Part shown: piece after piece, positions 28,857 to 63,986 of the stretch
Position numbering within the stretch: position 1 is the first letter of the stretch
Layout: each line of letters opens with the position of its first letter
Source: an uncultured Cytophagia bacterium
Lineage (GTDB): Bacteria; Zhuqueibacterota; Zhuqueibacteria; Oceanimicrobiales; Oceanimicrobiaceae
Reading direction: 5' to 3'
Assembly (NCBI GenBank): GCA_964539665.1
Contig: CAZIKB010000020.1
Location: 526-64,525, forward strand
DNA length: 64,000 nt
Program-made: the position numbers and the translations under genes
The notes under the pieces: model-generated
The model's database searches: none
What the model saw: only the letters and a program-made list of their open reading frames with translations
What the model was told of the DNA's origin: nothing

Positions 28857-30947
28857 TTGGAAACCATGAATGACCAACAAAATCAAATCCAAAAATCTGC
28901 TGAGTGGCAGCAGAAATTGCTCTATTTTGTTATGGGGTTTTTATTTTTTGAAACGTTAACCGGCCTTTCCATTTATTTACTTCCTTTCAGTGTTCCAAAC
29001 CAAATAATGGTGCTGCTGCATACAGTCATTGGGCTGATTTTCATCATTCCTTTTACATGGTATCAAATCCGACACTGGCTCATTTACCGCTCGATGACTA
29101 TTAACCATTTCAAACTGACCGGCTATTTCTCTTTGATTGTAACATTGGTGGCTGCTGTATCAGGTTTGGTTTTAACATTTCAGGCAATTTTCCAGACTCG
29201 AATCAGCTATGTCTGGGACCTGTTACATATCGTTTCAACCTTTGCATTGATCGCCGCTTTGGTGCCACACATCGTTGTCATTATGATTCGTGATTTCAAA
29301 GCAAGCAAACAGGAATCATTACAGCCAGTCCTTGCTGCCGAAAAGAAGTTTAGTTTGAACACCCTTCTTATCACGATAATACTTTTTGCGGTAGCAGCCC
29401 TTTTTGTGTATGCCTATGAACCGGTGACTCTGGAGAATAAGTTTCCCGAGGACTATAGCTACCTCTATGGAGCTGAAAGGCCTTTTGCACCAAGCCTGGC
29501 AACTACTTCGACTGGTGGAGCTTTTGACTCTAAATCTTTAGGTGGTTCTCAGAGTTGTGGAACCTCCGGCTGCCACGAACAGATTCTCCAAGAATGGCAA
29601 GTCAGCGCTCACCGATATTCGGCAATGGATGCAGCTTTTCAATTAGTCCAAAAGGTTATGGCCGAACAAAATGGGCCGGAGTCTACTCGCTATTGTGGCG
29701 GGTGTCACGATCCAATATCACTATTCTCAGGTACAAAGAATATTTTCAATGATGATTTGACCAATCTCACAGGTTATCAGGAAGGCGTATCGTGCATTGC
29801 GTGTCATGCTATCAAAGAAACCGACGTCAAAGGCAATGCCAAATATGTTATCACTCAGCCCGGTCGCTATATGTTCGAATTACACGAAGGAGAAACATTC
29901 AGGTTATTAAGAGATTTTCTAATTCGGGCATATCCCCAATATCATGTTGAAAGTTTACAACACCGTATGTTTAAAAGTCCGGAATTCTGCGCAGCCTGCC
30001 ACAAACAGTTTATAGATGAAGAGGTTAATAATGTTGGCTGGGTTCAACTTCAGAATCAATATGACAACTGGCGCAAAAGCCGATGGAATCATCCGGGCGA
30101 TCCAACAAAAACCGTCGAATGTCGTGAATGTCACATGCCGCTTAATGAATCGTCAGATCCTGCAAGTGGCGATCCTCTGGATTATAATCGTTCCACAACA
30201 GATAAAAAACACCGCAGTCACCGGTTTATCGCAGCCAATCAATTTATGCCCGGACTACTGAAGCTTACCGGTGCTGACGAACAGATAGCATTAACAGAAA
30301 AGTGGCTTCAGGGTAAATTCGAAATTCCAGAAATTGCAGATAAGTGGCAACCGGGTCCGGCGGTACCCATTGAATTAAAGGTACCGGAAAACGTAGTGCC
30401 TGGCCAGGAAGTGAAGATTCAAGTACTCATTGCCAATAATAAAGTCGGTCACGATTTCCCAACCGGACCACTTGACATCATCCAGGCATGGGTAGAATTG
30501 ATAGTAAAGGATCAGGATGGAAATATGGTATTTACTTCTGGTACAATAGATGAACAAAATTTTATTAAACCAGGGTCTTTCATTTTTAAAGCAGAAGCTG
30601 TTGACCAAAATGGCAATCTGATTGACCGCCATAATCTCTGGGAAATGGTCGGTGTGCGGTATCGCCGCGCTCTTTTTCCCGGTTTTTCCGATAAAGCAGA
30701 ATTTGCTTTTCCATGTCCGGCCAGCATGACGATTGCAGAAGGGCCGATGATGCCGACAAAAGAAGATTTTAAATTTCAGGTACCTGGTCAACGAGTGACA
30801 CAGTTAAAGGTAGACGCCAAGCTAATGTACCGAAAAATTGATCAATACTTGCTGAATTTTCTTCTTGGAAAAGATTCCGGGATCACCGCCCCGGTAACAA
30901 TCATCTCTGAAGATGAAAAAGAAATAGAAGTTAAGAATAATTTATAA
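28857..30947 (+). CDS. membrane-anchored multiheme cytochrome c (5 predicted N-terminal TM helices with conserved His, then a periplasmic domain with 4 CXXCH and 1 CX4CH)
   Basis: TM segments at ~aa 20-190 carrying His residues (HTVIGLIF, HIVSTFALIAALVPHIVV). Heme motifs CGGCH, CIACH, CAACH, CRECH plus CGTSGCH. TAAATTTG sits at 28809-28816 upstream. Confidence 0.7.
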   Translation: METMNDQQNQIQKSAEWQQKLLYFVMGFLFFETLTGLSIYLLPFSVPNQIMVLLHTVIGLIFIIPFTWYQIRHWLIYRSMTINHFKLTGYFSLIVTLVAAVSGLVLTFQAIFQTRISYVWDLLHIVSTFALIAALVPHIVVIMIRDFKASKQESLQPVLAAEKKFSLNTLLITIILFAVAALFVYAYEPVTLENKFPEDYSYLYGAERPFAPSLATTSTGGAFDSKSLGGSQSCGTSGCHEQILQEWQVSAHRYSAMDAAFQLVQKVMAEQNGPESTRYCGGCHDPISLFSGTKNIFNDDLTNLTGYQEGVSCIACHAIKETDVKGNAKYVITQPGRYMFELHEGETFRLLRDFLIRAYPQYHVESLQHRMFKSPEFCAACHKQFIDEEVNNVGWVQLQNQYDNWRKSRWNHPGDPTKTVECRECHMPLNESSDPASGDPLDYNRSTTDKKHRSHRFIAANQFMPGLLKLTGADEQIALTEKWLQGKFEIPEIADKWQPGPAVPIELKVPENVVPGQEVKIQVLIANNKVGHDFPTGPLDIIQAWVELIVKDQDGNMVFTSGTIDEQNFIKPGSFIFKAEAVDQNGNLIDRHNLWEMVGVRYRRALFPGFSDKAEFAFPCPASMTIAEGPMMPTKEDFKFQVPGQRVTQLKVDAKLMYRKIDQYLLNFLLGKDSGITAPVTIISEDEKEIEVKNNL

Positions 30948-43190: not shown

Positions 43191-43205
43191 AAGAGAGTGA
43201 GAAAA

Positions 43206-46097
43206 ATGAGGAGATTTGCAGTTTTACTGTTTCTTCTAATCAGTATAACACTGACCTCAGGATGGAATTTATTCGGGCAGAAATCCAAAGACCGAATATA
43301 TTTGGGCGAGAAAGCCTGTCGTCCGTGTCATCATCTTGCAGGAAAACGAGATCAGTTCAATCCCTGGTGGCTGGCTAAACATTCCAAAGCTTATGCTGCA
43401 TTGGCGCTGCCGGAATCCAAACAGATTGCAAAGTTGTCAGGCGTTGATGTCGATCCTTACAAAAGTCCCATCTGCCTGGGATGTCATACTACCGCTTATA
43501 ACGTAGAAGCCTGGGAACGTGATGACACTTTTCATTTTGAAGATGGCGTACAATGTGAACTTTGCCATGGACCTGGCAGCGAATATATAGACGCCAGTAT
43601 TATGCTGGACCGGGAGAAATCCTTAGCGGCCGGTTTAAAAATACCGGTCGAACGAGACTGCATGGTTTGTCATAAGGAAAAAGGCTCCCACGTGGCGGTC
43701 CTGGATGTCAAAAAATTCAATTATAAGGAAGCGCTTAAGGAAATCGCCCACCCTGGGCACGGTGGATTCCTTAAAGAATTCTTTTTTCAAGTACAGCGAA
43801 TTCTCTATGAATGGTTCCCAAAAGATGAATTGCCTGTTGAGTCTCTGCTTGGTCCGAAATATGTTGGCGCTCTGGCATGTGGTAAATGTCATGGTATTAC
43901 ATCCGTTGGTCATCAATTTAGTAAATGGCGTTTCTCCAAACACGCCCGTACCTATGCCATCCTTAATACTGAGCGAGCAGCAGAAATTGCCAGTGAGATG
44001 GGATTGTCCGGCAATCCACAAAAGTTGGGAAAATGCCTGCAATGCCATACCACAGGCGCCGGAGAGCCTGCTGGTCGGTTCTCTGAAAGTTTCGATCCAT
44101 TCCAGGGAGTACAGTGTGAAAGCTGTCACGGCCCTGGAAGCGAATATATGGCAGACGCCATTATGCTGGATCCGGTAGCAGCCGCAGATGCCGGATTAAG
44201 AGACGTGAATAAGGAAATTTGTGTTAAATGTCACACCGAAGGTATTCATGGTCACTCTTTCGATTTTGAAACCATGTGGCCTGAGATCGATCACTCGAAA
44301 TGGCAAGAAGAATATTCTAATGTGGAATATAAAACTCCACTAAACCTGGCAATTACTCAGGATGGAAAGCGGTTATTTATCGCATGTGAAGCCTCTAACA
44401 GCCTTATTGTTGTGAATGCGGAATCTGAAAAAATACTGGCAGAAGTGGAAATCGGTACCCAACCGCACTTTGTTTGCTTTTCCCCGGATGAAACCCGCGC
44501 CTATGTAAGTAATCGCGGTTCCGACAATGTTTCAGTTGTTGATGCAAATACTTATCTGGTGCTATCGACAATTACAGTCGGGGATGAACCGCACGAGATG
44601 GCAACGAATAAAGCAGGAAATATTTTGTACATAGCCAATGCAGGCACCTACGACGTCTCCGTGGTCGATCTGGAAAAAGGCCAGGAAATTAAACGTCTGG
44701 CAGCATCCAGAGGTCCATGGGGTGTGGCCCGTTCGCCTGATGGCCAGTTTGTCTATGTTAGCAATAATTTACCCAGACATGGTAAATTCCGCACTCCAAC
44801 CGCATCTGAAGTGACTGTTATTGAAACAGACCGTTCAATTGTCAAACATCGATATACCGTGCCGGCGGCCAATTTAATCCAGGGAATTGCAATAGCGCCA
44901 AACGGTGAATTTGCGCTCACGACTTTAATCCGCACCAAAAACCTGGTTCCTATGACACGCAATATCCAGGGCTGGATTATTACCAACGGCATCGGTATTC
45001 TCTGGAAGGATGGTCGTGTGGATCAATTGCTGCTGGACAACGTGAGTGACTTTTTTGCGGATCCCACTGATGTCGTCTTTTCAAAAGACGGCCGGTACGC
45101 TTTTGTTAGCGGCGGTGGGGTCCAGGAAATCGCCATGATTGACATCAAGAAAATGAAACAGATTCTGGAACAGGCCACGGATAGCGAACTTATGGAAGTG
45201 CTGCCCAACCACCTTGGCATGAGCACGCAATATATTCTAAAACGGATTCCGGTTGGACAAAGTCCGCGAGGGATGGCGGTCGCTCCGGACAATAAATACC
45301 TGTACGTTGCCGACGGATTAGATGACGCCATTTCTGTTATTGATATCAAAAAACGGCAGCGAGTCAAAGTCATCGAACTCGGAGGCCCGCAAGAAATTAC
45401 CCAGACACGGTACGGCGAGCGTATCTTTCACAGCGCGGGGAACACCTTTACCCGACAGTTTTCATGCCATTCATGCCATCCGGATGGCGGCGTCGATGGA
45501 ATAACTTATGACATAGAACCGGATGGCCTGGGCTACAATCCTGTGGATAACCGCACATTGAGAGGTGTGAACGACACTGCTCCCTTTAAGTGGACCGGCA
45601 AAAATCCCACATTAAGACGCCAGTGTGGACCCAGACTGGCTGCATTTTTCACACGTATCGATCCGTTCACAGCAGAGCAATCCGCGGCGTTGGAACATTA
45701 CATCGTAACTATTCCCAGACCGCCAAACCGCTACCGAACCGGAGAAGAACTCACCCCAACTCAAAGACGGGGCAAACGGCTTTTCGAAAGGAAATACGAC
45801 AATTCCGGCAATGAAATTCCATTGAGTAATCGCTGCGATACTTGCCATTCACCGCCCTATTATACCAACCGGGAAATAGCCGACGTAGGTTCTGCATCCT
45901 GGCTGGATACAAATAGTAAATTCGACATCCCTCATCTCAACAACATTTATGCGACGCCACCCTATCTTCATGATGGACGAGCAAAATCATTGGAGGAAAT
46001 CTGGACGATTTATAACCCAAATGACACTCATGGTCTTTCAAATGATTTAACAAAAGACCAGCTCAATGATCTTATTGAATATTTGAAAACACTTTAA
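43206..46097 (+). CDS. ~10-heme cytochrome c fusion: two tandem tetraheme modules, a YVTN-type beta-propeller and a C-terminal di-heme CCP/MauG-like domain
   Basis: Eight CXXCH in two repeated sets (CRPCH, CLGCHTT, CELCHGPGSEY, CMVCH; CGKCH, CLQCHTT, CESCHGPGSEY, CVKCH). Propeller repeats (AYVSNRGSDNVSVVD, LYIANAGTYDVSVVD, VYVSNN..., LYVADGLDDAISVID). C-terminal CHSCHPDGG and CDTCHSPP. Confidence 0.75.
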   Translation: MRRFAVLLFLLISITLTSGWNLFGQKSKDRIYLGEKACRPCHHLAGKRDQFNPWWLAKHSKAYAALALPESKQIAKLSGVDVDPYKSPICLGCHTTAYNVEAWERDDTFHFEDGVQCELCHGPGSEYIDASIMLDREKSLAAGLKIPVERDCMVCHKEKGSHVAVLDVKKFNYKEALKEIAHPGHGGFLKEFFFQVQRILYEWFPKDELPVESLLGPKYVGALACGKCHGITSVGHQFSKWRFSKHARTYAILNTERAAEIASEMGLSGNPQKLGKCLQCHTTGAGEPAGRFSESFDPFQGVQCESCHGPGSEYMADAIMLDPVAAADAGLRDVNKEICVKCHTEGIHGHSFDFETMWPEIDHSKWQEEYSNVEYKTPLNLAITQDGKRLFIACEASNSLIVVNAESEKILAEVEIGTQPHFVCFSPDETRAYVSNRGSDNVSVVDANTYLVLSTITVGDEPHEMATNKAGNILYIANAGTYDVSVVDLEKGQEIKRLAASRGPWGVARSPDGQFVYVSNNLPRHGKFRTPTASEVTVIETDRSIVKHRYTVPAANLIQGIAIAPNGEFALTTLIRTKNLVPMTRNIQGWIITNGIGILWKDGRVDQLLLDNVSDFFADPTDVVFSKDGRYAFVSGGGVQEIAMIDIKKMKQILEQATDSELMEVLPNHLGMSTQYILKRIPVGQSPRGMAVAPDNKYLYVADGLDDAISVIDIKKRQRVKVIELGGPQEITQTRYGERIFHSAGNTFTRQFSCHSCHPDGGVDGITYDIEPDGLGYNPVDNRTLRGVNDTAPFKWTGKNPTLRRQCGPRLAAFFTRIDPFTAEQSAALEHYIVTIPRPPNRYRTGEELTPTQRRGKRLFERKYDNSGNEIPLSNRCDTCHSPPYYTNREIADVGSASWLDTNSKFDIPHLNNIYATPPYLHDGRAKSLEEIWTIYNPNDTHGLSNDLTKDQLNDLIEYLKTL

Positions 46098-52388: not shown

Positions 52389-54053
52389 TTACTCTCGAAT
52401 ACCAACGCCCTGTTCAATTGTCAGATAGCGGTCAGCTTCAAGTTCTTGAAAAACCTCTGTAGTACCGTCCGTCCAACGAATCTCCAGCCGATCAACCTGC
52501 TTATAATCACCGAGACCGAAGTGCATTCGAGGATCATTATAGGAGAGGTAACTGGTTGCCCACTGGTTGATCCTGACTTGTTTTTTCATGCCTGCCTGTA
52601 TCGTCACTCTGGCTCCAATTGCAGAAGCGGTTCCTTTTTTCCCAACCAGAGTTACTCCCAGCCAGTGATTTCGATTGCCCCCCTCGTTTTGAAGAAGCGT
52701 TGCTGTGGCGCGCAGGTCCACATGAGAGACAATAATGTCTAAATCTCCATCATTGTCAAAATCCCAAACCGCAGCTCCCCGTCCGGAACGCTTATCTTTA
52801 AAATAGGTGCTTCGCTCTGGTCCTACATTGTGAAAATGTCCGGTTCCATCGTTTTCCAACAAGAGTGGTGGTTGCTCGACAAGTTCTTCTGCTAATCCAT
52901 TTGCCGAGAAGAGGTCTAAGTCGCCATCGTTATCAAAATCGAAAAGAGCGGCTGCCCATACACCCAAACCTGCAAATGCGCTGCTAAGGCCGCTCCACTC
53001 TGTAATATCTTCAAAAATACCATCCCCGAGATTACGGTAAAGCGCTCCATATCGAAGGTCTACAACCAGCAAATCAATTAATCCATCCCCATCAATATCT
53101 CCGATTGAGCCGTGCATGGAGCCAGTTGGCATCCCCCGATCGTTGACAGTTACGCCTGAAGCTTGAGCAACTTCCTTGAATTTACCGTTTCCATCGTTTC
53201 GAAACAGAAAATTCATCTGGTGATCATTCCCCTGGAATATATCTAAATCTCCATCGTCATCGTAGTCAAAAACGGTCAATCCCATACATTTCGACTCAGG
53301 GTAGTGTAATCCCAGCTCCTTTGTAATATCGGTAAAGCTGCCATCGGTTTCCTGACGGTAAAACATGGAGGCCTGCCCGTGGTACTCGGACGGATGCGGC
53401 ATCATATCTGGTGTGGTTGGAGATACATAAGATGGATCAAATGCCAGGAAATTACATACCATCAAATCCAGCGCCTCGTCACCATTGTAATCCCAGAAGG
53501 CTACTCCAGCGCTCCACTTGGTATGCCCGTTCAGTTTTTCTGGCCCCCTGAGTCCCAATGAGTCAGTAACATCTGTGAAAGTGCCATCTCCATTATTAAG
53601 GTAAAAAACATTGGGGCCGTAATTCAAAAGATAAATATCAACATCACCATCGTCGTCATAGTCTATTGCCCCGGCAGCCATACTCCATTGGCGATCATCA
53701 ACTCCGGCTTTCTCAGAAACTTCTGTAAACGATCCATCACCGTTATTACGATAAAGTCGATTCGGCGTATCTTTAAACACTAATCCTGCCGGGTCGCTGA
53801 CACCTTCCAGATATGTTCCATTTAGCATATATAAATCAAGATCTCCGTCACCGTCATAATCAAACACCGTAATTCCGGAACCGCTGCTCTCCAGAATATT
53901 TTCGTAAGTATAGTCACCGAATGTATATTTAAAATCAATTCCTGCCTGCTCAGTTATATCAGTGAAAGTTACATCTGGCGTCTGGGCCCATGAGGTCACA
54001 GTGATAGCTATTAAAGGTAGAGAACAAATATTACGTAATAATTTCAATCTCAC
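52389..54053 (-). CDS. CRTAC1-family protein, single module (FG-GAP + ASPIC/UnbV), 554 aa, secreted
   Basis: FDYDGDGDLDLY, IDYDDDGDVDIY, FDYDDDGDLDIF, FDFDNDGDLDLF, and C-terminal ASPIC (NHWLGVTLVGKKGTASAIGARVTIQAG...ATSYLSYNDPRMHFGLG). Confidence 0.85.
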   Translation of the reverse strand: MRLKLLRNICSLPLIAITVTSWAQTPDVTFTDITEQAGIDFKYTFGDYTYENILESSGSGITVFDYDGDGDLDLYMLNGTYLEGVSDPAGLVFKDTPNRLYRNNGDGSFTEVSEKAGVDDRQWSMAAGAIDYDDDGDVDIYLLNYGPNVFYLNNGDGTFTDVTDSLGLRGPEKLNGHTKWSAGVAFWDYNGDEALDLMVCNFLAFDPSYVSPTTPDMMPHPSEYHGQASMFYRQETDGSFTDITKELGLHYPESKCMGLTVFDYDDDGDLDIFQGNDHQMNFLFRNDGNGKFKEVAQASGVTVNDRGMPTGSMHGSIGDIDGDGLIDLLVVDLRYGALYRNLGDGIFEDITEWSGLSSAFAGLGVWAAALFDFDNDGDLDLFSANGLAEELVEQPPLLLENDGTGHFHNVGPERSTYFKDKRSGRGAAVWDFDNDGDLDIIVSHVDLRATATLLQNEGGNRNHWLGVTLVGKKGTASAIGARVTIQAGMKKQVRINQWATSYLSYNDPRMHFGLGDYKQVDRLEIRWTDGTTEVFQELEADRYLTIEQGVGIRE

Positions 54054-54399: not shown

Positions 54400-57300
54400 A
54401 TGAAATTAAAAATGAATTTCGTAATTATTATTAGCGTTGTAAGTGTTTTAGTTCTGTTCTTCGCCGGATGCGAGAAAAAAGAAGAAACAGACAAAAGGAA
54501 ATCGCTGGATATGGTCACCGTTCGCACTTTGGGCCTGGCCTTTTTGGAAGAGAATAAACTCCAGGAAGCAGAGGAGCAATTCCAAAAACTTATAGAATTG
54601 GCTCCGGAAGAGGTCCTGGGGTACGCTAACCTTGGCCTGGTTTATATGCGAATGGGCCAATATGAACAGGCGGAAGAACAATTGAAAAAGGCACTGGAAG
54701 TCGTGCCAGACGATCCTGATATCCGTTTAAACCTCGCAGAAGTTTATGAACTGGAATATGAACTGGAAGAATCCATCGCCTTGCTTGAACACACGATCAA
54801 AACTACGCCAGATCACATTAAGTCGCTTTTTAAGCTTGCCAGGTTCTACAATAAATCTGCAGATCAACAAATGAAATTGCGAAGCGAGGACCTTCTTAAC
54901 AGAGTTGTGGAGATTCGTCCAGCTAACATTACAGCAAGGCTGCACCTTATTGAAACCTGTCTTAAAAATGGCAAGGCTGATACAGCAAGAATGCATCTGG
55001 AACAATTAAGACAACAAATGTCTGAATTACCAAAAGAATCTGGTGAGTATTTTGATAAAAGTCTTGCTTTCCTAACATCATCCGAAGTGGAACAAGCGCT
55101 TACTCCTACCATGATATTTCATAATTTCATGAAAGTCACACCCTTGTATCAAGCGAGCATTCTTGAGCTGAAAGGCTTAGGCGGACCTTTACTGGGTACT
55201 CCGCTCCTGACTTTTAGTCGCGATATTACCCTTCAGACGCAAGGTTCAGAATCCACATTGGATATGATTCGCTTCACAGACGCTACTACTGCAGCCGGAC
55301 TGGATGTGGCCAACCTTCTCCCGCAAGCCCCAACTAATTCCAATGAATCGAATTCCATTATTGCCGTTTCCGATTTCGATAGCGATGACGATCAGGATAT
55401 CTACGTGTCAATCTGGCATCCCAACACGAATCAAAGTGAACAGTTCTTTTTCAGGAACGAATTCGGACAATTTAAAGATATATCTTCTGAAGCCGGCATA
55501 AAACACCCCGGCAAAGATTTGGCCGCCGTTTTTGCCGATTACAATAACGACGGTTTCCTGGACCTCTTCATCGCAAATTCAGTTGCCAATCTATTGTACA
55601 ACAACGCAGAAGAAGGCAAGTTTCAGGATGTCGGAGTATCTGCTGGTATTGCAGTATCGGCTTTTGGTCTAAACGCTGTTTTTGCCGATTTTGACCATGA
55701 AGGCGACCTGGATTTATACCTTGCTAATGCCGAAGAAAATCAGTTTTATCGTAACAATTTAGACGGTACCTTTACTGAGCTTTCAGGCAAAGCGGGTATT
55801 TCCGCCGGGAAAACACGATCCCGTGATCTGGCCATTGGGGATTTCGATGAAGACGGCGACCTTGATTTTTTTGTAGCGAACGAAGGCGCCAGCAATATTC
55901 TCTACACAAATCTACGGCAGGGGAGCTTTCAAGACATCACAGAAACTGCTGGTCTTAAAAGCGATGGCAATTCCGGCGCAGTCACAGCAGGTGACTATAA
56001 CAATGATGGTTTTTTAGACCTTTTTGTTACCGGGCTCCAGGGTGGGAGCTATAGTCTGTATAAAAATAAAGGAAATGGCTCCTTTGATAAAGATAACCGT
56101 TCAAGTGAAATGTTTGACGAGCTGAGTAATTTCATCGGCCTTGACGCAAAATTCTTTGACTTTGATAACGACGGATTCATTGACCTGTTAGTTGCCGGAA
56201 GACCATCCGAAAAAATGGAAAAAAGCAGCGGCCTGCTACTTTTCCATAATGATGGCACCGGCAAATTTGAAAAGAGCAGCTTACTTTTTCCTGAAGAAAT
56301 TCCACCCGTAAGTAAAATAGCCGTAGCTGATTATAATGAAGACGGGGATATGGATATTTACTTTGCAAAGCTGAATGGCGGTATCGGGTTGCTTCGTAAC
56401 GATGGCGGAAATGTTAACAAATATCTCAAAGTACGTTTAGTCGGTCTCAGAACAGGCAGCGGAAAGAATAACCACTTTGGCATAGGTTCAAAACTGGAAG
56501 TCAGGGCTGGCGACCTTTATCAAATGCGTGTAATTTCAGAACCAGTGACGCACTTTGGACTTGGTCAACGATTAAAAGCTGATGTGGTGCGCATTTTATG
56601 GCCCAATGGCGTTCCTCAAAATTTGTTTTATCCTGGCTCCGATCAAGACCTTGTTGAAGAGCAAATATTAAAGGGTTCCTGCGCATTTCTATATACATGG
56701 AACGGCCAAAATTATACCTTTGTCACAGACATCTTGTGGAGAAGCGCCATCGGTATGCCTCTGGGAATAATGGGCGGTTCCACTGCTTATGCTTTTCCTA
56801 ATTCCTCACAGGATTATTTCAGAATTCCAGGTCAAATGCTTAAAGCTAAGAATGGGATGTATTCTATTCAATTAACCGAAGAATTATGGGAAACGGCCTA
56901 TTTTGATCAGATTAAACTTATTGCTGTTGATCACCCTGATACGGTAGATATTTATATTGATGAACGTTTCCTGCCTCCGCCTATTCCACCTCTTCAAATA
57001 TACAGGGTCACAAAGAAACATTATCCAAAATCTGCCATTGACAACCACGGCAATGATCTTCTCCCATTACTTCGCGAACAAGATGATATTTACGTATCGA
57101 ATCTCACTCCGGAGAAGTACCAGGGCATGACCAAATTGCACGACCTTATTTTAGACTTAGGCAACTTGTCGAGCGCTACGAAAATTTCGTTGTTTTTAAA
57201 CGGATGGATTTTTCCTACTGACGCCAGTATTAATATGGCGCTTTCACAATCCGAGCAATTGAAAGTCATCCCACCTTATTTGCAAGTGTTGGACAACAAC

Positions 57301-57993
57301 GGCCATTGGCGGACTGTTATTGAGAATTTGAGTTTTCCGATGGGTAAAAACAAAGTAGTTATCGCTGACCTGACTGACAAGTTCATATCAAATGACTTCA
57401 GAGTACGCATACGAACTAATATGCAGCTTTATTGGGATTATGTTTTCTTCGCAATCGATGCTGAGGAGGTTCCAGTTATTGAGACATCCCTTCAACCTGT
57501 TTCAGCGGATATCCATTATCGCGGATTCTCACGCGTGTACCGTAAAGGCGGACGATATGGACCGCATTGGTTTGATTACAGTGATGTTTCTCGTGAGCCT
57601 AAATGGCGTGATTTAGAAGGGTATTATACGCGCTACGGCGACGTGCAGCCGCTTTTTTTAGAATCCGATAATAAATATGTTATCATCAACGCCGGTGATG
57701 AAGTTACATTAGAATTCGATGCAAGCCAGACACCTGAGCTTAAACCCGGATGGTCGCGTGATTTCATTATCTACAGTGACGGCTGGCTAAAAGACGGCGA
57801 CCTGAACACTGCTCATGGGAATACAGTTTCGCCTCTTCCATTTCACGGCATGTCTCGTTATCCGTACGGATCAGATGAATACTATCCCACAGAGGAAGAA
57901 TTTCAACAATATCAAAAAAAGTACAATACAAGGAAAGTGACTACTGATAAATTTCGCAGGTTGATGATGGACTTACCACAGGGTGAAAGATAA
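54400..57993 (+). CDS. lipoprotein: N-terminal TPR region + FG-GAP repeats + ASPIC/UnbV + ~450-aa C-terminal extension of unknown type (1197 aa)
   Basis: Lipobox FFAGCEKK; TPR repeats in aa 40-230; FG-GAP motifs (DFDSDDDQDIY, DYNNDGFLDLF, DFDEDGDLDFF, DFDNDGFIDLL, DYNEDGDMDIY); ASPIC (NKYLKVRLVGLRTGSGKNNHFGIGSKLEVRAG...). The remaining ~450 aa have no motif I recognise. Confidence 0.8.
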   Translation: MKLKMNFVIIISVVSVLVLFFAGCEKKEETDKRKSLDMVTVRTLGLAFLEENKLQEAEEQFQKLIELAPEEVLGYANLGLVYMRMGQYEQAEEQLKKALEVVPDDPDIRLNLAEVYELEYELEESIALLEHTIKTTPDHIKSLFKLARFYNKSADQQMKLRSEDLLNRVVEIRPANITARLHLIETCLKNGKADTARMHLEQLRQQMSELPKESGEYFDKSLAFLTSSEVEQALTPTMIFHNFMKVTPLYQASILELKGLGGPLLGTPLLTFSRDITLQTQGSESTLDMIRFTDATTAAGLDVANLLPQAPTNSNESNSIIAVSDFDSDDDQDIYVSIWHPNTNQSEQFFFRNEFGQFKDISSEAGIKHPGKDLAAVFADYNNDGFLDLFIANSVANLLYNNAEEGKFQDVGVSAGIAVSAFGLNAVFADFDHEGDLDLYLANAEENQFYRNNLDGTFTELSGKAGISAGKTRSRDLAIGDFDEDGDLDFFVANEGASNILYTNLRQGSFQDITETAGLKSDGNSGAVTAGDYNNDGFLDLFVTGLQGGSYSLYKNKGNGSFDKDNRSSEMFDELSNFIGLDAKFFDFDNDGFIDLLVAGRPSEKMEKSSGLLLFHNDGTGKFEKSSLLFPEEIPPVSKIAVADYNEDGDMDIYFAKLNGGIGLLRNDGGNVNKYLKVRLVGLRTGSGKNNHFGIGSKLEVRAGDLYQMRVISEPVTHFGLGQRLKADVVRILWPNGVPQNLFYPGSDQDLVEEQILKGSCAFLYTWNGQNYTFVTDILWRSAIGMPLGIMGGSTAYAFPNSSQDYFRIPGQMLKAKNGMYSIQLTEELWETAYFDQIKLIAVDHPDTVDIYIDERFLPPPIPPLQIYRVTKKHYPKSAIDNHGNDLLPLLREQDDIYVSNLTPEKYQGMTKLHDLILDLGNLSSATKISLFLNGWIFPTDASINMALSQSEQLKVIPPYLQVLDNNGHWRTVIENLSFPMGKNKVVIADLTDKFISNDFRVRIRTNMQLYWDYVFFAIDAEEVPVIETSLQPVSADIHYRGFSRVYRKGGRYGPHWFDYSDVSREPKWRDLEGYYTRYGDVQPLFLESDNKYVIINAGDEVTLEFDASQTPELKPGWSRDFIIYSDGWLKDGDLNTAHGNTVSPLPFHGMSRYPYGSDEYYPTEEEFQQYQKKYNTRKVTTDKFRRLMMDLPQGER

Positions 57994-58073: not shown

Positions 58074-60164
58074 TTACGTTAACTCAATGCTTTTATATTG
58101 TTCACCAAATTGTGCGCCTTTTTCATCAAACAGGGCACGAATATTATCATCCATGGTAAAGTAAATAATTTGCCAGCCGTTTTGGGCCAGTTCGGCTACT
58201 TTATCTGTAAGCAATATTCTACGTTCCCAATCTGAATATTGAAAAGCATCATCGAGAACTAAAAACAGGCAATCTTTACCGGTCATCATCGTGCTAAATC
58301 CTATACGAAGCGCAAGTAAAACCTGTTCTTGTCCACCTGTGCTGATCTCGGAAAGGTCAAAGGTATTAAATGGATCAGACACAACCAGTTTATCGCCATC
58401 GACGTAAAGACCATTATAACGATTGGTAATTTGAAACAGCGGTTCCAGGACAGACTTCGATTTTAAGCCGGCAATAATTTTACCGTCTTCCGCTTTTCTT
58501 AGCTCAGATATTACCTGGTTAACAGCCATTTTACCAATAATCTCTGCGGTTTTTTGCTTAAATTTTACTATAACCTGCTCGCGTTTTTCCTGGAGGTTTC
58601 TCAATACGATTTCCCAGCTTGTCGAAATGTTATCGTCAGTTTGCTGGCAAATCAATTGCTTGAGATTGGTCAATTTTTGAGTTTCTTCATCCACTTGCTG
58701 TTGGATTAATTGCAAACTTTTTTCAAATTCATCAAGCGTCTGGTTACTATACGGCACTTCGGTTTTTTGCGTTAAAAAGTCTGATGGATCTACCCCAAGC
58801 TTTGCCAGGTATAATTCCTTTTCACGAATCTGGTTTTCCAGTTTTTGAAACTCTTTTTCCAAATCCCTGAGTACTGCATCCCAGGTTTTCGAATCATGAT
58901 TCACACCAGTCAAATCTTCCAGCAGCTCTGACAGCTTCAGTTTTAGAGTATACAAACTGTTTAGGTCCTCTGTCAACTGTTTTTTTAACAAACGAGCCGT
59001 ATTATAATCTTCCTCCATCCTATGTAATAATTCCTTGACAATCGGCAGGCCGGTCAATTCTCGCTGAAAATGTTTTTTGAATTCTCTTTTTAAATTCTTA
59101 ATCTCCAGATTTTCAACGGCCCGTTCTGCAATGATCCGGTACTGTCGGACATGCAGCATGCCAAAAACGATAATCCCCGCCAGAGCAATAATTGCAAAAA
59201 TGGGCATTTTCATCACAGCAAAAACACCAGCGATAACTACCATTGCAATGGCCAATATTAGAAAAACAGGTTTAGGGCTCGCAAATTCCTGCTTCAAGAT
59301 ATTTTCATAAACTTCGAGTGCACTTTTTAACCATTCATAATGTTTGCTCTTAAATTCAGCATCTTTTTGTTCGTCTTTCTTTTTTTTATATTCGGCGACT
59401 TTCTGTTTGTTTATATTCAGTCCACTTTTAAATTTATGAATTTTATCAGCTGCAATTTTGTGTTTACTAACTTTTAATTTTTTTAATTCTTTGTCAGTTG
59501 TATAAGCAATATATTTTTTTGCATTTACCTGTTGATTGATTTGAGCCTTTAATTGTTCTTTTTTGTCTGCAAGCGTTTTTCTGGTTCCCCCTGAAAAACC
59601 TTTGTCAACCTGTTCAAACAATTGATTAAGTTTCTTTAATTGCTCGCTTAATTCAAGCCTTATGTTGATTTCTCCTCTCTTTGGCCCGGTTATGATATTA
59701 TTTTCAATTTGACATTCTTGAATGGTTTTAGAAATATTCGCCTCGATTTTATCGAGAATTTCTCTGCTTGATAGAAATCGTTTCAAAATTACCCTGTCCG
59801 CGCCCCCTTCGACATTAGCTATTTCCACTTCTGCTCCTTTCACCACCAAAAGCTTTGAGAAATCAGGCGGTAATCCCACGTTAGATTCCTCCCAAAAATC
59901 TTCAAGTTTTTTAGCTGAATTGGGATGAAAATCAATCAATCCTCCATTTGTGAGTCCCTCAACGACAACCTTCCCTTTACCCTTTTGGCTTCTCAGCGGC
60001 CACAAACGAGTCTTTCGGAATAGAGAGCGAATCACAAACTCAACCAGATAAGTTTTGCCTTTTTCATTGCGGCCGTATATTAAATTGAATCGCGCAAGCT
60101 CCAATGAGATTTCAGAAAGAGGGCCAAGATTTTGTACATTTATTTCTTTGATATTAAGTGACAT
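58074..60164 (-). CDS. SMC/Rad50/SbcC-superfamily ATPase with central two-helix transmembrane hairpin (696 aa)
   Basis: N-terminal Walker A GRNEKGKT; long coiled-coil-like K/E-rich arms; central hydrophobic pair (FLILAIAMVVIAGVFAVM, IFAIIALAGIIVFGML); C-terminal Walker B and D-loop (CLFLVLDDAFQYSD). Confidence 0.7.
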   Translation of the reverse strand: MSLNIKEINVQNLGPLSEISLELARFNLIYGRNEKGKTYLVEFVIRSLFRKTRLWPLRSQKGKGKVVVEGLTNGGLIDFHPNSAKKLEDFWEESNVGLPPDFSKLLVVKGAEVEIANVEGGADRVILKRFLSSREILDKIEANISKTIQECQIENNIITGPKRGEINIRLELSEQLKKLNQLFEQVDKGFSGGTRKTLADKKEQLKAQINQQVNAKKYIAYTTDKELKKLKVSKHKIAADKIHKFKSGLNINKQKVAEYKKKKDEQKDAEFKSKHYEWLKSALEVYENILKQEFASPKPVFLILAIAMVVIAGVFAVMKMPIFAIIALAGIIVFGMLHVRQYRIIAERAVENLEIKNLKREFKKHFQRELTGLPIVKELLHRMEEDYNTARLLKKQLTEDLNSLYTLKLKLSELLEDLTGVNHDSKTWDAVLRDLEKEFQKLENQIREKELYLAKLGVDPSDFLTQKTEVPYSNQTLDEFEKSLQLIQQQVDEETQKLTNLKQLICQQTDDNISTSWEIVLRNLQEKREQVIVKFKQKTAEIIGKMAVNQVISELRKAEDGKIIAGLKSKSVLEPLFQITNRYNGLYVDGDKLVVSDPFNTFDLSEISTGGQEQVLLALRIGFSTMMTGKDCLFLVLDDAFQYSDWERRILLTDKVAELAQNGWQIIYFTMDDNIRALFDEKGAQFGEQYKSIELT

Positions 60165-60166
60165 GT

Positions 60167-61270
60167 TTAATTCTCATAAATTAAATGTAATGCAGAAAGT
60201 AAAATTTGATCTTTATCAGGTTGCTCCAGGTCTGAATCCCAGTGTAAGTTTTCAATCCAGGCTGAAACTTGTTTGGCAATTTCTGCGCGGTTAATATCAT
60301 CAGCGACAGACACATTTGAAAGATCAGGTCCTCGATCCTTATAAAAAGTAAATCCCTGAAAGCATTCTTCAATCGTTTTATGCAAAGCCCTTTTGTTTAA
60401 CGTATAACCGTGTGCCTTAACCTGGACTCTAACCCGGGCTATTTCATCCTTCTGTAAATTCCACTGCTTAATTATTTCTGCTATTTTATATTTAATATAC
60501 TTTTCTTCATCCCGAATTGGTAGACTAATGAGTTTTTCGTTGAAGTAAATATAGTCAGAATCAACGGTTTGCGGTTTGATGGCGCCAGTATCTGCGTCCA
60601 TTATTAAAAATCTTCTACGACCGGTCTCAGTAATATCCAGGCCACAAGGAGAACCTGAATAATGAATTCTTGGCCGGTCCAAAGCTTTGTGAATGTGCCC
60701 TAAAACAACAGTAACAGGTTTATAATTATCGATATCAATGCGAGTTAAAGGCATATACACACCTGGTTCAAATGGATTAGGCTCGCTCAGTCCTTCAGCC
60801 CAATCACCATGACCAACTAGTACCCAATCATTTGCGGACAATTCAGCGGTCTTGTCTGCAATAAATTCTCCCATGGTTTTATCTGGCATATATGGTAAAA
60901 AAAAGAATTTTAAACCGCCGGTATTGAACGTTCTAATAGTTGGTGCAGCCACGATTTCAATATTTTCAGCGGTCAGCGCATCAATATTCAGCCGCACATC
61001 ATGATTCCCCGGTAGGATGAGAAAATTAATATCCTTGTGTTTTGGCGCTTGACAAAATTTATCGAACTCAGAATAGTTACGACTTGATACATCAAAGAGA
61101 TCCCCAGCAATAATGAGCTTATTGACACCTGCTGTTAACATCTGTTCAAGAATATTTTCAAGAGCATGATAACGTTCCGGATGTTCTTTTTGCGTTGTTA
61201 AATGAATATCTGCAGTTATGGCTATTTTCAAAATGTACTCCTTCAGGAATGTGTCTTTAAAATAATTCAA
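60167..61270 (-). CDS. calcineurin-like metallophosphoesterase, SbcD/Mre11-like (367 aa)
   Basis: DIH, GDLFD, GNHD, GHGD, GHIH motifs. Directly upstream of the ATPase gene with a 2-bp spacer. Confidence 0.75.
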   Translation of the reverse strand: MNYFKDTFLKEYILKIAITADIHLTTQKEHPERYHALENILEQMLTAGVNKLIIAGDLFDVSSRNYSEFDKFCQAPKHKDINFLILPGNHDVRLNIDALTAENIEIVAAPTIRTFNTGGLKFFFLPYMPDKTMGEFIADKTAELSANDWVLVGHGDWAEGLSEPNPFEPGVYMPLTRIDIDNYKPVTVVLGHIHKALDRPRIHYSGSPCGLDITETGRRRFLIMDADTGAIKPQTVDSDYIYFNEKLISLPIRDEEKYIKYKIAEIIKQWNLQKDEIARVRVQVKAHGYTLNKRALHKTIEECFQGFTFYKDRGPDLSNVSVADDINRAEIAKQVSAWIENLHWDSDLEQPDKDQILLSALHLIYEN

Positions 61271-61402: not shown

Positions 61403-61792
61403 ATGCCTTTTGAAAAGCAACTTTCTGTGTTTGTGCAAAATAAAGTCGGAAGTTTAGCAAAACTTTGTTCTGAACTTGCTGAAGCTAATGTCAACATAAA
61501 ATCCTTAACCATTGCAGATGATTTAGATTGGGGGATCGTCAGATTAATTGTTGATAATCCTGACAAGGCCAAAGAAATATTGCATCAATTGAATTTTATG
61601 TACGGTGAAGGCAATGTTTTGACCACAGAAATCAAGAATCATCCAGGAGCTATAGCGGTGTTGGCCAACAAATTAACAAAAATGAAAATTAACATTGAAC
61701 ATATGTTTACCACCACTACTGGCGAAAACTGTCTGCTGGTTCTGACAACTACAGATGATAAAAAGGCCAATACAATTTTAATGCAAGAATAA
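61403..61792 (+). CDS. tandem ACT-domain protein (129 aa)
   Basis: Two ACT-like halves (LSVFVQNKVGSLAKLCSELAEANVNIKSL and NVLTTEIKNHPGAIAVLANKLTKMKINIEHM). Confidence 0.6.
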   Translation: MPFEKQLSVFVQNKVGSLAKLCSELAEANVNIKSLTIADDLDWGIVRLIVDNPDKAKEILHQLNFMYGEGNVLTTEIKNHPGAIAVLANKLTKMKINIEHMFTTTTGENCLLVLTTTDDKKANTILMQE

Positions 61793-61937
61793 AAATGGCA
61801 GATGAGAAATTAAAAGTTCCCCGGCTCTTCGATGATCAGAAGTGGTATTAATTATCTGTAGAAATTTTAGAACAAGTTGAATTGGTATCCCCTCAATAAA
61901 CAATGGGTACTCAGCTTTGCTAAATTTTGAAGGTTTA

Positions 61938-63986
61938 TTAATGCACAAGTAATGCAAACATCTCATCAACAGGCACAGGCCGACTAAAATAAAAACCCTG
62001 CATTTCATCACATTTTAATGATTGTAAACAGGCAAGTTGATTTTCATTTTCGACCCCTTCTGCTAATACTTTCAGTTTAAGTTCATGCGCCAAGTTTACT
62101 ATTGTAGATACTATCGTCCAATCCTGGTCGTGTTCATGAAGCCCTTTCACAAAAGAGCGATCAATTTTTAAACTATCAAACGGGAATCGTTTTAAGTAAT
62201 TCAGGGAAGCATAACCGGTACCAAAATCATCAATTGCTATGTGAATTCCCGAATCCTTCAACATATTGAGCGTTGATATGGTGTAATCGACATTCTGCAT
62301 AGCGTTGCTTTCGGTAATTTCCAGCGTAAGACAATTGTGGTTTAATCCAGTTTCTTCTAATATTTGATTAACACTTTCCTTTAGCTTCATGACGTGAAAT
62401 TGTCGGGCAGAAAGGTTGACGGCGACTCGAATATCGCGAAAGCCAGCATCTTGCCAGGCTTTATTCTGTTTACATGCTGTATTCAGAACCCATTCACCAA
62501 TAGGTACTATTTGCCCGGTTTCTTCTGCCAGTGGAATAAATCTATGAGGGGGTAACAAACCAAGCTCCGGATGCTGCCAGCGAACCAAAGCTTCTACACC
62601 AGTAATTTCATTTGTTTGTAAATTTACTTGTGGTTGGTAATGAAGCACCAGTTCATTGCTTTCAACAGCCTTTCTCAGATCGTTTTCCAGTCCACAACGT
62701 TCAAATACTTCAGTGTCTATCGATGAATTGTAATAGTGATATTGGGTGGCGTCATCAATTTTTGCCCGATACATGGCGATGGCAGCTTTTTTTACAAGAT
62801 TGTCGACATCCAATCCATCATTTGGGTAAAGGCTTATGCCAATGCTTGCTGAAATTTTTAGATGATTTCCATCAATAAAAATGGGTCTGGTGAATTCCTC
62901 GATAATTTTTTGCGCTACTTTTGCAGCATCCTCAAGCTGTACTATCTTTTCCAGCATAATTGTAAATTCATCTCCACCCAGCCGTGCAACTGAATCGTTT
63001 TCGCGTATGCACTCTTTTAGCCGCTTAGCGATTGACCTCAAAAGTGTGTCTCCAGTACTATTCCCCAGGGAATCATTTTCAGGATTAAATCGATCTAAAT
63101 CCACATAGAGAACAGCTACTTTATACTGGTAACGTTTTGCCTGCATAAGAGAGTGACGTAGCCGGTCATAAAATAATTGTCGGTTAGGCAAATCTGTATA
63201 TGCATCGTGATATGCCAAATATCGGTCCAGCTTTCTGGATTTCTCCAATGCAGCCTGCATTCTCCTTCGTTCTGTGACATCCCTCAAAGTGGCCAGGTTA
63301 GCATTTTCACCATCCCACTTGATCTTTGCAACACGAATTTCAGCAACACTTGCATTGCCATCTGCACGAGTTATTTCAATCTCAGAAATTTCCCCTTCCA
63401 CAACCGGGTGACCAAACACTTCACCGAGCAGCTCATGAGAAGTACGCCCGAAAAGCTTTTCCGAAGCGGGATTAACAAATCGTATCTTTCCATGTCTATT
63501 CAAAATAATCATGCCATCTGTATTTCTTTCAATGACACCGCGAAGCTGTAATTCGTTGTCCTTTATTTGTTGTGTTTTGGCCTCTAATTTAATAAGTACT
63601 TTTGAACGTTCAATAGAGTAAAGTATCGATTTTATCAATAGATTCGCTTTTAGATGCTTTTTTACTAAATAATCGTATGCACCATCCTCGATAGATTTCA
63701 TAGCGATGGGAAGGTTATCCTGTTCGGAAATAATTACAATTGGGATTTCCTTAACTTGCGCTTTTAATTTGTAAAATGCTTCAAGCCCACGCGCATCAGG
63801 TAAAGGCAAATCCAATAATATCAGATCAATAGTGTCGCCTGACAGATATTTTTTTGCAGCAGATGGCCGAGCTACTCGTTTCAAATTAAATTGAGCAAGA
63901 TCCGTATGGATTAATGTATTTTTTATTAAACTGAAATCCGCTGGATCATCCTCAATTAACAGTATTTTGATAAGTTGATGATTCAT
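61938..63986 (-). CDS. response-regulator receiver + PAS + GGDEF + EAL protein (c-di-GMP turnover)
   Basis: REC (ILLIEDDPAD...LILLDLPLPDARG), PAS, RLGGDEF, EALVRW, and DDFGTGYASL. Confidence 0.85.
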   Translation of the reverse strand: MNHQLIKILLIEDDPADFSLIKNTLIHTDLAQFNLKRVARPSAAKKYLSGDTIDLILLDLPLPDARGLEAFYKLKAQVKEIPIVIISEQDNLPIAMKSIEDGAYDYLVKKHLKANLLIKSILYSIERSKVLIKLEAKTQQIKDNELQLRGVIERNTDGMIILNRHGKIRFVNPASEKLFGRTSHELLGEVFGHPVVEGEISEIEITRADGNASVAEIRVAKIKWDGENANLATLRDVTERRRMQAALEKSRKLDRYLAYHDAYTDLPNRQLFYDRLRHSLMQAKRYQYKVAVLYVDLDRFNPENDSLGNSTGDTLLRSIAKRLKECIRENDSVARLGGDEFTIMLEKIVQLEDAAKVAQKIIEEFTRPIFIDGNHLKISASIGISLYPNDGLDVDNLVKKAAIAMYRAKIDDATQYHYYNSSIDTEVFERCGLENDLRKAVESNELVLHYQPQVNLQTNEITGVEALVRWQHPELGLLPPHRFIPLAEETGQIVPIGEWVLNTACKQNKAWQDAGFRDIRVAVNLSARQFHVMKLKESVNQILEETGLNHNCLTLEITESNAMQNVDYTISTLNMLKDSGIHIAIDDFGTGYASLNYLKRFPFDSLKIDRSFVKGLHEHDQDWTIVSTIVNLAHELKLKVLAEGVENENQLACLQSLKCDEMQGFYFSRPVPVDEMFALLVH

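Follow-up and report, generated by a model that had tools for sequence, protein, structure and literature searches.

The 64,000-nucleotide stretch of DNA analysed here (the window) carries a nuclease gene and an ATPase gene whose products, as we consider fairly probable, form a membrane-anchored Mre11/Rad50-type complex, a compact, non-Firmicute branch of the SbcEF type that would process DNA ends at the membrane. The family to which the pair belongs is an undescribed, widespread relative of the little-studied Bacillus SbcEF (YhaO/YhaN) repair proteins. The Rad50/SMC field assumes that the apex of the coiled coil is a hook or hinge by which two arms are joined in solution; in this family, and apparently also in Firmicute SbcE, it is a conserved hairpin predicted to lie in the membrane.

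The nuclease gene and the ATPase gene

Both ORFs of the original prediction are present on the minus strand, between positions 58074 and 61270, and the ATPase ATG lies 2 nt past the nuclease stop codon on that strand. The features of the nuclease gene are:

60167..61231, minus strand: Mre11/SbcD-type nuclease gene, 354 aa, TTG start (the mechanical ORF reaches 61270)
61238..61243, minus strand: Shine-Dalgarno sequence AAGGAG, seen in the sequence itself, 6 nt ahead of the TTG at 61231
61202..61210, minus strand: motif I (D-I-H; D8, H10), invariant in 24 homologues
61100-61105, minus strand: motif II (GD), invariant column of the nuclease alignment
60998..61009, minus strand: motif III (GNHD, residues 75-78), invariant column of the same alignment
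60809-60811, minus strand: motif IV (H141), likewise an invariant column
60689-60700, minus strand: motif V (GHIH), likewise an invariant column
60176..60214, minus strand: conserved C-terminal helix (KDQILLSALHLIY), candidate ATPase-binding helix

The nuclease gene is real, but the 367-aa ORF first listed for it (to 61270) begins 13 codons too early. The start is most likely the TTG at 61231, because AAGGAG stands 6 nt upstream of it and the resulting 354 aa match both homologues and public gene calls; the public call P0378 has exactly this 354-aa sequence. A scan for promoters and terminators gave counts not above those of shuffled sequence.

Sequence and model together show that nothing is missing from the Mre11/SbcD two-metal active site of the nuclease and that its fold is that of Mre11 throughout. 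It matches Pfam Metallophos at 7e-14, and its closest NCBIfam and PDB relatives are SbcD/Mre11. With the AF2 model (pLDDT 90.6), the top 50 matches of a Foldseek search of the PDB were without exception Mre11/SbcD, with alignments that span the full length, the capping domain and the C-terminal helices included. The proposed Mre11/SbcD-like nature of the phosphoesterase paired with the ATPase is borne out by five invariant motifs as well as by the fold. Unlike SbcD, the protein scores far below the curated SbcD models (41.1 vs a cut-off of 450 bits for PRK10966 and 35.5 vs 77.65 for TIGR00619). Its C-terminal helix comprises residues 340-352 in the AF2 model, with A347, L348, I351 and Y352 invariant in the 24-homologue alignment, and by analogy with the C-terminal Rad50-binding helices of Mre11 we infer that it docks on the ATPase.

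The ATPase gene has the following features outside the apex of its coiled coil:

58074..60164, minus strand: Rad50/SMC-fold ATPase gene, 696 aa (ORF, AF2 model, Foldseek, profile match)
60051..60074, minus strand: Walker A (GRNEKGKT, residues 31-38), of the form NE.GK[ST] in 256/256 family members
59298..59675, minus strand: N-terminal helical arm, residues 164-289 (AF2 helices 164-189, 193-235, 239-272 and 276-289)
58464..59144, minus strand: C-terminal helical arm, residues 341-567 (AF2 helices, conservation)
58323..58349, minus strand: ABC signature motif (EISTGGQEQ), with S608, G610, E613 and Q614 invariant
58230..58265, minus strand: Walker B Asp-Asp (FLVLDD) and D-loop (YSD), with D638, D639 and D645 invariant
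58146..58166, minus strand: H-loop position (IYFTMDD), with Met opposite the Rad50 H-loop His

The motifs and the AF2 model (pLDDT 84.7) show a Rad50-like split ABC head, formed by N- and C-terminal lobes, and long antiparallel helical arms, in agreement with the earlier description of a 696-aa SMC-like ATPase with Walker A, arms, Walker B and D-loop. The best PDB fold matches in Foldseek are Rad50, MukB and SMC (top Rad50 7zr1, 3.9e-11), and the family profile matches Rad50 heads in the PDB, Rad50 being the best match there in both sequence and fold. A check against SMC_N had also been proposed: its Pfam gathering score was missed (21 vs 40 bits), as was that of AAA_27 (13.5 vs 22 bits), whose match spans residues 5-44 only. 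The C-terminal arm is ~100 residues longer than the N-terminal arm (about 227 vs 126 residues) and contains a conserved loop, VDPSDF...VPYS; the module formed by this arm is duplicated in ~870-aa variants of the family. The signature EISTGGQEQ aligns to the Rad50 signature region and to LSTGTKDQ of YhaN.

Both the canonical Walker B Asp-Glu and the H-loop His are absent from the ATPase. Walker B and D-loop read FLVLDDAFQYSD, and the Asp-Asp pair, present in the window protein as LDDAF, occurs in 243/256 family members and Asp-Glu in 0/256. Alignment to P. furiosus Rad50 sets a Met against the H-loop His, within a TMD-type motif that 249 of the 256 members carry at this position. RecF has an SMC-like ABC head with an Asp-Asp Walker B and weak ATPase activity; the comparison concerns the ATPase motif only, and RecF is not known to have a long coiled coil, a membrane segment or a nuclease partner. 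Because Asp replaces Glu in Walker B and the H-loop His is missing, slow, switch-like hydrolysis is predicted, and the ATPase could be a sensor or scaffold and not a motor.

The hydrophobic hairpin at the coiled-coil apex

Between the two arms, where Rad50 and SbcC carry a zinc hook, the original prediction had placed two hydrophobic helices instead of a CXXC hook, and the closer analysis confirms this arrangement:

59148..59270, minus strand: predicted transmembrane helical hairpin, residues 299-339 (hydropathy, AF2, family conservation, K/R-rich flanks)
59211-59270, minus strand: TM1, residues 299-318 (PVFLILAIAMVVIAGVFAVM), from hydropathy
59148-59204, minus strand: TM2, residues 321-339 (PIFAIIALAGIIVFGMLHV), from hydropathy

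TM1 and TM2 are joined by a K-M(-P) turn, and the AF2 helices at the hairpin comprise residues 300-317 and 321-347. Only 1 residue in 41 (299-339) is charged, in an ATPase that is 30% charged as a whole, and the highest 19-residue Kyte-Doolittle mean in the protein is 3.07. On the Hessa scale TM1 sums to about -4.1 kcal/mol and no ATPase window outside the hairpin falls below +8 kcal/mol; TM2 alone is marginal at about +0.9 kcal/mol for a 19-residue window (a hand sum, not tool output). A CxxC motif is absent from the window ATPase, as its only cysteines are at 151, 506 and 632.

Conservation of the hairpin across the family is far beyond chance. A central hydrophobic span, always at mid-length, is found in 255/256 homologues and likewise in 82/82 loci, and CxxC occurs, incidentally, in only 3/256. 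The span has a median length of 45 residues, and per 12 residues there are 2.6 and 3.0 K/R in its flanks vs 0.45 inside the ~45-residue span. Its hydrophobicity is conserved and its sequence is not. From sequence and model we predict that this hairpin is inserted in the membrane.

Alternatively, the ATPase could be a soluble SMC-like protein whose hydrophobic segment lies buried at the apex as a dimerisation or hinge domain, which we regard as improbable. SbcE-YFP forms foci on nucleoids during growth, and the 2010 paper on SbcEF called the region a 'central domain' (PMC2811018); the marginal, hand-summed value of TM2 would also suit such a domain. However, a nearly uncharged span of ~45 residues in so highly charged a protein, which keeps its hydrophobicity while its sequence drifts, argues against it, as do a length that fits two membrane crossings with a tight Pro turn, the positive-inside flanks and the complete insolubility of the isolated SbcE/YhaN central domain (PMC2811018). 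Rather than a buried coiled-coil core with a hook motif, the apex thus presents a non-amphipathic span, and the hook is absent.

The membrane-fusion GTPases atlastin and mitofusin tether or remodel membranes by head dimerisation, and the combination of a nucleotide-binding domain, helical arms and a tight, predicted transmembrane hairpin would resemble them. The pair might accordingly act on membranes and not on DNA, with ATP-driven head dimerisation tethering or remodelling membranes and a non-DNA substrate for the phosphoesterase. This reading is less probable still: the phosphoesterase is specifically Mre11/SbcD in sequence and in its full-length fold, down to the capping domain and C-terminal helices, Rad50 is the nearest relative of the ATPase head, and DNA-repair genes adjoin the family loci in one clade.

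Kinship with SbcEF and a model for the complex

The suggested resemblance to SbcEF/YhaNO proved well founded. Against the family profile, Firmicute YhaN/SbcE reaches 61.0 bits (E 5.9e-16) in a collinear match through N-terminal head, hairpin and C-terminal head; with the database size kept equal, the best solved Rad50 reaches 26.2 bits. For the family against YhaN, hhalign gives 97.4% probability. Sequence similarity between the ATPase and YhaN is clear only in the C-terminal head (24% over 94 columns), and the nuclease matches YhaO at 1e-10 with 24% identity. A Pro-turn hydrophobic hairpin without CxxC is present in 16/16 Enterococcaceae YhaN sequences, and many members of the family are named 'YhaN' by JGI.

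As in SbcEF, the nuclease gene stands immediately upstream of the ATPase gene, and the ATPase is a Rad50-like protein without CxxC that has a central Pro-turn hydrophobic hairpin at the coiled-coil apex, a Walker A of the form NE.GK[ST], the signature STG, an Asp-Asp Walker B and no H-loop His. The two systems differ in that the window ATPase has 696 aa vs 875-963 aa in YhaN, and therefore shorter arms, and in that it fails the Pfam AAA_27 gathering score, whereas Enterococcus YhaN reaches 74.6 bits on that model. The nuclease, at 354 aa, is shorter than YhaO (406 aa), and no yhaM exoribonuclease gene lies downstream in the window (the Enterococcus order is yhaO-yhaN-yhaM-prsA). The window family also lies outside the Firmicutes.

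SbcE lacks CxxC and has a hydrophobic central domain with a conserved proline; B. subtilis SbcEF has roles in double-strand-break repair and transformation, and SbcE is polar in competent cells (PMC2811018). The function of SbcE is poorly defined in the literature. No such membrane anchor was described in the literature searched on SbcEF, COG4717/AAA_27, Rv1277/Rv1278 and membrane-anchored Rad50-/Mre11-like proteins, and there the hydrophobic central domain of SbcE was never called a membrane anchor.

In common with SbcCD/Mre11-Rad50 in general, the pair is encoded as an operon of two subunits, nuclease and ATPase, and has an Mre11 fold that carries the five phosphoesterase motifs as well as a split ABC head with antiparallel helical arms; Mre11-Rad50 provides the nearest solved structures for both proteins. 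It departs from Rad50/SbcC in the predicted transmembrane hairpin that replaces the zinc hook, in its much shorter arms, and in the changes of the catalytic Walker B Glu to Asp and of the H-loop His to Met.

For the membrane-anchored Mre11/Rad50-type complex that we favour, we envisage that the hairpin inserts in the cytoplasmic membrane with both ends cytoplasmic, so that head and nuclease would be suspended beneath it at a distance of at most about 15-20 nm. The hairpins of two ATPase subunits would associate in the bilayer, replacing hook-mediated apex dimerisation, and the nuclease, like Mre11, would dock with its C-terminal helix at the base of the coiled coil. Engagement of the heads, driven by ATP, may then clamp DNA ends or hairpins and license the nuclease. 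Membrane-located DNA ends, from a broken chromosome or from incoming linear DNA, would be processed for recombinational repair, a role proposed by analogy because of the phenotypes reported for B. subtilis SbcEF.

A wider generalisation, which we advance only tentatively and would not expect to hold, is that these proteins are an unrecognised, widespread class of membrane-embedded Mre11-Rad50, in which the transmembrane hairpin is both apex dimeriser and localiser and the slow Asp-Asp ATPase is a switch. With the hairpin as apex and localiser, DNA ends would be recognised only at the membrane's inner face, and such a complex could gate DNA that crosses the envelope (uptake, conjugation, phage injection) or tether broken chromosome ends. 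If an Mre11-Rad50-type nuclease were shown to be restricted to the membrane, this would add a new mode of positioning DNA-end processing in the cell. It would also open to experiment the old question of what a second SbcCD-like system is for in those bacteria that retain one, and of the part played by SbcEF at the competence pole. The compact form (about 700 + 354 aa) may suit biochemistry and cryo-EM better than the insoluble B. subtilis SbcEF.

Distribution, gene neighbourhood and the question of defence

With at least 536 clusters at 50% identity the family is a sizeable one, and its phyla are mostly uncultured. Of 185,579 species genomes, at least 331 carry it; they are dispersed among several bacterial phyla and include two archaeal MAGs, with hosts in KSB1/Calditrichota, Chloroflexota, Actinomycetota, Spirochaetes, Zixibacteria and some archaeal MAGs, not in Firmicutes. 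Nuclease and ATPase genes invariably adjoin each other and are translationally coupled: in 80/80 loci with upstream DNA the nuclease gene immediately precedes the ATPase gene on the same strand, with gaps mostly within a few tens of bases, the larger ones being ORF-start or assembly artefacts. For the neighbourhood analysis, all ORFs of 86 loci were clustered and 144 neighbour families were scanned against PADLOC and Pfam; a third conserved gene was sought among the neighbours of the family loci, and only the two genes are kept. In 82 loci each clade has its own housekeeping genes as neighbours, and synteny holds within clades down to 41% ATPase identity. In 15-16 Actinomycetota loci, genes for PolX and an HhH-GPD (EndoIII-like) glycosylase precede the pair on its own strand. 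A small gene upstream in some KSB1 loci, not present in the window, is by eye a stress-responsive barrel (Dabb-like).

The pair had also been suggested to be a defence module, and it is conceivable, though we think it unlikely, that a membrane-tethered Rad50-like sensor finds entering linear DNA ends, which the Mre11-like nuclease then destroys against phages or plasmids. Patchiness across distant phyla, archaea included, suggests horizontal transfer and is typical of accessory or defence genes too, the two genes make a self-contained module, one archaeal locus of the family adjoins an integrase and a transposase, and the membrane would be the entry site of foreign DNA. Lamassu defence uses Rad50-like sensors with variant Walker B, and there were weak PADLOC matches to LmuB (4.6e-8, partial) and PDC-S10 (1.3e-7). 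LmuB is, like the window ATPase, a short Rad50-like ATPase whose variant Walker B is expected to slow hydrolysis, and Foldseek gave a fold match to 9uxh. LmuB nevertheless has a zinc hook and acts together with LmuA and LmuC, whereas the window pair is without hook, LmuA and LmuC, its partner is, judging from its motifs, a catalytically complete Mre11-type nuclease, and the genomic context of the family is not of the defence type.

On a wider view, too, the defence suggestion found no support. None of the PADLOC 2.0 and NCBIfam defence models matched convincingly (DS8 and DS9 at E 0.005-0.012), and the clade-conserved neighbours, as described above, are housekeeping genes. SbcEF, the nearest characterised relative, has repair and transformation phenotypes (PMC2811018). 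The relatives had been proposed as a place to look for defence islands. The 144 neighbour families came from 82 loci; none of defence type recurs in more than two, and defence genes are not enriched; matches were sporadic (a UvrD-like helicase on GajB models, two CARF proteins and one DRT-like protein), and because none recurred we rejected the idea of a defence island. Searches of 72,556 plasmids and 50,697 phage records gave no homologues, the matches in the phage collection being mislabelled Enterococcus chromosome fragments that carry a YhaN/YhaO/YhaM locus.

The operon and its Mre11-type nuclease

The pair consists of two minus-strand open reading frames (ORFs) that together fill the interval 58074-61270, bordered by a convergent TPR/FG-GAP gene on one side and a divergent ACT-domain gene on the other.

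Features of the nuclease-ATPase pair (window coordinates or residue numbers)
60167-61270, minus strand: nuclease ORF as called mechanically, upstream in the pair, calcineurin-like phosphoesterase
58074-60164, minus strand: ATPase ORF, downstream in the pair
58464-59144, minus strand: C-terminal arm, ATPase residues 341-567
ATPase residues 299-339: hydrophobic hairpin, PVFLILAIAMVVIAGVFAVM-KM-PIFAIIALAGIIVFGMLHV
ATPase Walker A: GRNEKGKT
ATPase signature region: EISTGGQEQ
ATPase Walker B and D-loop: FLVLDDAFQYSD
Nuclease motifs: D8/H10, GD43-44, GNHD75-78, H141 and GHIH178-181, invariant in the alignment with 24 homologues

The mechanical nuclease start, TTG 61270, adds 13 residues (window 61232-61270) that are absent from homologues. 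Direct reading of the DNA places an AAGGAG Shine-Dalgarno sequence 6 nt 5' of a second TTG at 61231, which is the likely start; the resulting protein of 354 aa has the typical length of its homologues (353-354 aa) and exactly matches P0378, the protein as recorded by public gene callers. The 367-aa form is present in one public record (P0498). Only 2 nt separate the nuclease stop from the ATPase ATG, so that the two genes are probably translationally coupled.

The nuclease matches Pfam Metallophos (7e-14), and SbcD and Mre11 are its closest curated or solved relatives. All five Mre11-type motifs are invariant in 24/24 homologues of 47-66% identity, in which residues A347, L348, I351 and Y352 of the C-terminal helix are also conserved. 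Its AlphaFold model is confident (pLDDT 90.6), and each of its best 50 PDB fold matches is an Mre11 or SbcD structure, with alignments covering practically the full length. Family members are labelled 'exonuclease SbcCD subunit D' by NCBI and JGI; the window nuclease itself falls well short of the curated SbcD cut-offs.

The Rad50-fold ATPase and its hydrophobic apex

In the AlphaFold model of the ATPase (pLDDT 84.7) long helices connect the N-terminal with the C-terminal lobe of the head. The top Foldseek match is Rad50 (7zr1, 3.9e-11), ahead of MukB, cohesin, Smc5/6, JetC and LmuB, and a family-profile search of solved structures returned Rad50 heads as the only meaningful relatives (2e-5). 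Two head positions depart from Rad50 in the profile alignment: a second Asp stands in for the catalytic Glu that follows the Walker B Asp, and Met occupies the place of the H-loop His. Both changes run through the whole family: Walker B reads DD in 243 of the 256 sequences and DE in not a single one, and TMD stands at the H-loop position in 249 of 256. This leads us to infer that the ATPase is slow and switch-like; for LmuB, the Rad50-like sensor of Lamassu, a similar change of Walker B (Glu to Gln) has been described.

The arms are unequal (~126 residues on the N-terminal and 227 on the C-terminal side), the C arm being ~100 residues longer and including a highly conserved loop (VDxSDY...(V/I)xYS) that connects two helices. 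Family lengths are mostly 690-715 aa; variants of ~870 aa (P0147, P0165 and P0184) have helical modules duplicated on both arms, i.e., the C-arm loop module and one N-arm module, and retain the hairpin. The 849-aa homologue P0224 has a Gln/Thr-rich low-complexity insert just ahead of a longer hydrophobic region and an additional Gly/Ser-rich insert in the N-terminal head.

The ATPase has no CxxC, and the hairpin reaches a maximal 19-residue Kyte-Doolittle mean of 3.07 with one charged residue in 41, compared with 30% charged residues in the whole protein. A simple Hessa-scale sum gives about -4.1 kcal/mol for its first helix and more than +8 for all windows outside the region, and AlphaFold places helices at residues 300-317 and 321-347. 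Among 26 aligned homologues the hairpin is free to vary in sequence, but its hydrophobicity and position are constant. The hydrophobic stretch is found in 82/82 full-length homologues from related loci, none of which has a second such segment elsewhere, and in 255 of 256 database homologues, the lone exception lying just below the threshold used. The median span measures 45 residues, and its flanks are rich in Lys/Arg (2.6 and 3.0 per 12 residues, as against 0.45 inside); length and flanks fit a helical hairpin with both ends on the cytoplasmic side. The hairpin is predicted to insert into the membrane. A buried coiled-coil core should be amphipathic and charged, and the span is almost uncharged; nor was the hook motif found that the original prediction had named, together with such a core, as evidence against itself. 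We consider a buried non-membrane domain at the apex very improbable. As judged from sequence and predicted fold, the pair couples a catalytically complete Mre11-type nuclease to a Rad50-fold ATPase whose apex is a conserved hydrophobic hairpin, which confirms the original observation and supports the main interpretation originally proposed, i.e., a hairpin in place of the CxxC hook.

Relation to SbcEF (YhaN/YhaO)

Weak matches led to two GenBank records labelled 'Listeria phage' LM 4-14-1 and 4-11-1 (UNVERIFIED_ORG; OR848140.1, our locus L086, and OR847466.1). We reject this label: the encoded ATPase is 95% identical to an E. faecium protein in NCBI/UniRef, and the records are Enterococcus chromosomal fragments with the gene order yhaO-yhaN-yhaM-prsA. 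Their YhaN (905 aa, AAA_27 1e-20) resembles the window family in lacking a CxxC and in having, at mid-length, a hydrophobic hairpin with a proline turn, as do 15 further Enterococcaceae YhaN sequences. Against YhaN the window-family profile scores 61 bits (E 6e-16, Z = 177,635), in a collinear alignment of N-head, hairpin region and C-head; the best solved Rad50 reaches 26 bits. For the C-terminal head the hhalign probability is 97%, and the nucleases match at 1e-10. Both ATPases share as derived features an NE.GK Walker A, an STG signature, an Asp-Asp Walker B and the lack of the H-loop His. The suggested likeness to SbcEF is thereby borne out. However, the window ATPase falls below the AAA_27 cut-off, is ~200-270 residues shorter, lacks an accompanying yhaM and occurs in other phyla; on these grounds its family is not a plain YhaN orthologue.

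For B. subtilis SbcE, a hydrophobic and insoluble 'unique central domain' with a conserved proline and no CxxC has been described, and the protein is reported to act in double-strand-break repair and transformation and to localize to the pole in competent cells (PMC2811018). That 2010 paper nowhere terms the domain a membrane anchor, and our literature searches found no paper that does. The pair belongs to the SbcEF-type MR complexes, which are known but poorly understood, and its architecture was anticipated by Firmicute YhaN.

Distribution, neighbourhood and possible function

A profile search of 1.84 billion representatives yielded 536 clusters (E <= 1e-30), and a pattern-seeded scan with a single genome for each species detected relatives in 331 genomes, a lower bound. 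The 80 loci kept from it are all MAGs, from KSB1/Calditrichota, Chloroflexota, Actinomycetota, Spirochaetes, Zixibacteria and two archaea (one Thermoplasmatales, one Euryarchaeota). The window's closest relatives, at 61-66% identity, derive from MAGs whose label is just 'bacterium' or candidate division KSB1; for relatives labelled Caldithrix the identity is ~55%. The archaeal ATPases, from Euryarchaeota archaeon UBA202 (loci L002/L003/L043) and the Thermoplasmatales MAG (L042), are 39-40% identical to that of the window, and the former pair adjoins Hel308-like helicase, CGI-121/KEOPS, integrase and transposase genes. The archaeal copies suggest inter-domain transfer.

All 80 loci with upstream DNA have the nuclease gene immediately before the ATPase gene in the same orientation, mostly within a few tens of bases, the few outliers being ORF-start or assembly artefacts. 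Clustering of 930 neighbouring ORFs revealed no third family-wide conserved gene; inside individual clades the gene order is stable. The divergent ACT-domain gene and a response-regulator-PAS-GGDEF-EAL gene beside the operon (window 61403-63986) recur in 10-14 KSB1-type loci at ATPase identities down to 41%, indicating long-standing synteny. PolX (polymerase beta thumb plus PHP domain) and HhH-GPD glycosylase genes lie upstream of the pair on the same strand in 15-16 Actinomycetota loci (L050, L053, L057, L060, L063 and L073 among them), directly adjacent in one case, and Rnf complex genes follow downstream; this arrangement may be a DNA-repair gene cluster.

The neighbourhoods do not look like defence islands: among 144 neighbour families compared with PADLOC, no defence family was present in over two members, Pfam assigns the neighbours to metabolism and signalling, and no homologues were found in plasmid and phage collections. 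Together with the stable clade synteny, this favours chromosomal maintenance over a mobile defence island. The patchy spread across phyla keeps the idea of a defence module alive, but we consider it unlikely in view of these neighbourhoods.

We lean towards a membrane-anchored, SbcEF-like MR-type complex that processes DNA ends near the membrane; within this reading, support is strongest for the membrane-anchored, MR-like architecture. The hairpin would anchor the complex and probably dimerize it inside the membrane, the C-terminal helix of the nuclease would dock on the base of the arms, and ATP-dependent head engagement would gate the cutting of DNA ends or hairpins close to the membrane, presumably to process ends for repair or recombination, the role reported for SbcEF. 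A function in membrane remodelling appears more improbable than any other reading considered. The pair matters as a widespread, uncharacterized and architecturally unusual complex.

Elsewhere in the window, CRTAC1-like repeat proteins are locally expanded: three tandem paralogous FG-GAP/ASPIC (UnbV) genes encode ~1240 aa each (16406-28685, plus strand), and two more lie directly downstream of the ATPase gene (52389-54053, minus strand; 54400-57993, plus strand), one with an N-terminal TPR region. Two genes, at 28857-30947 and 43197-46097 (plus strand), encode large proteins with cytochrome c554 or multihaem cytochrome domains, to which the latter adds domains of MtrC-like and beta-propeller type; this hints at a gene cluster for extracellular electron transfer or redox functions.
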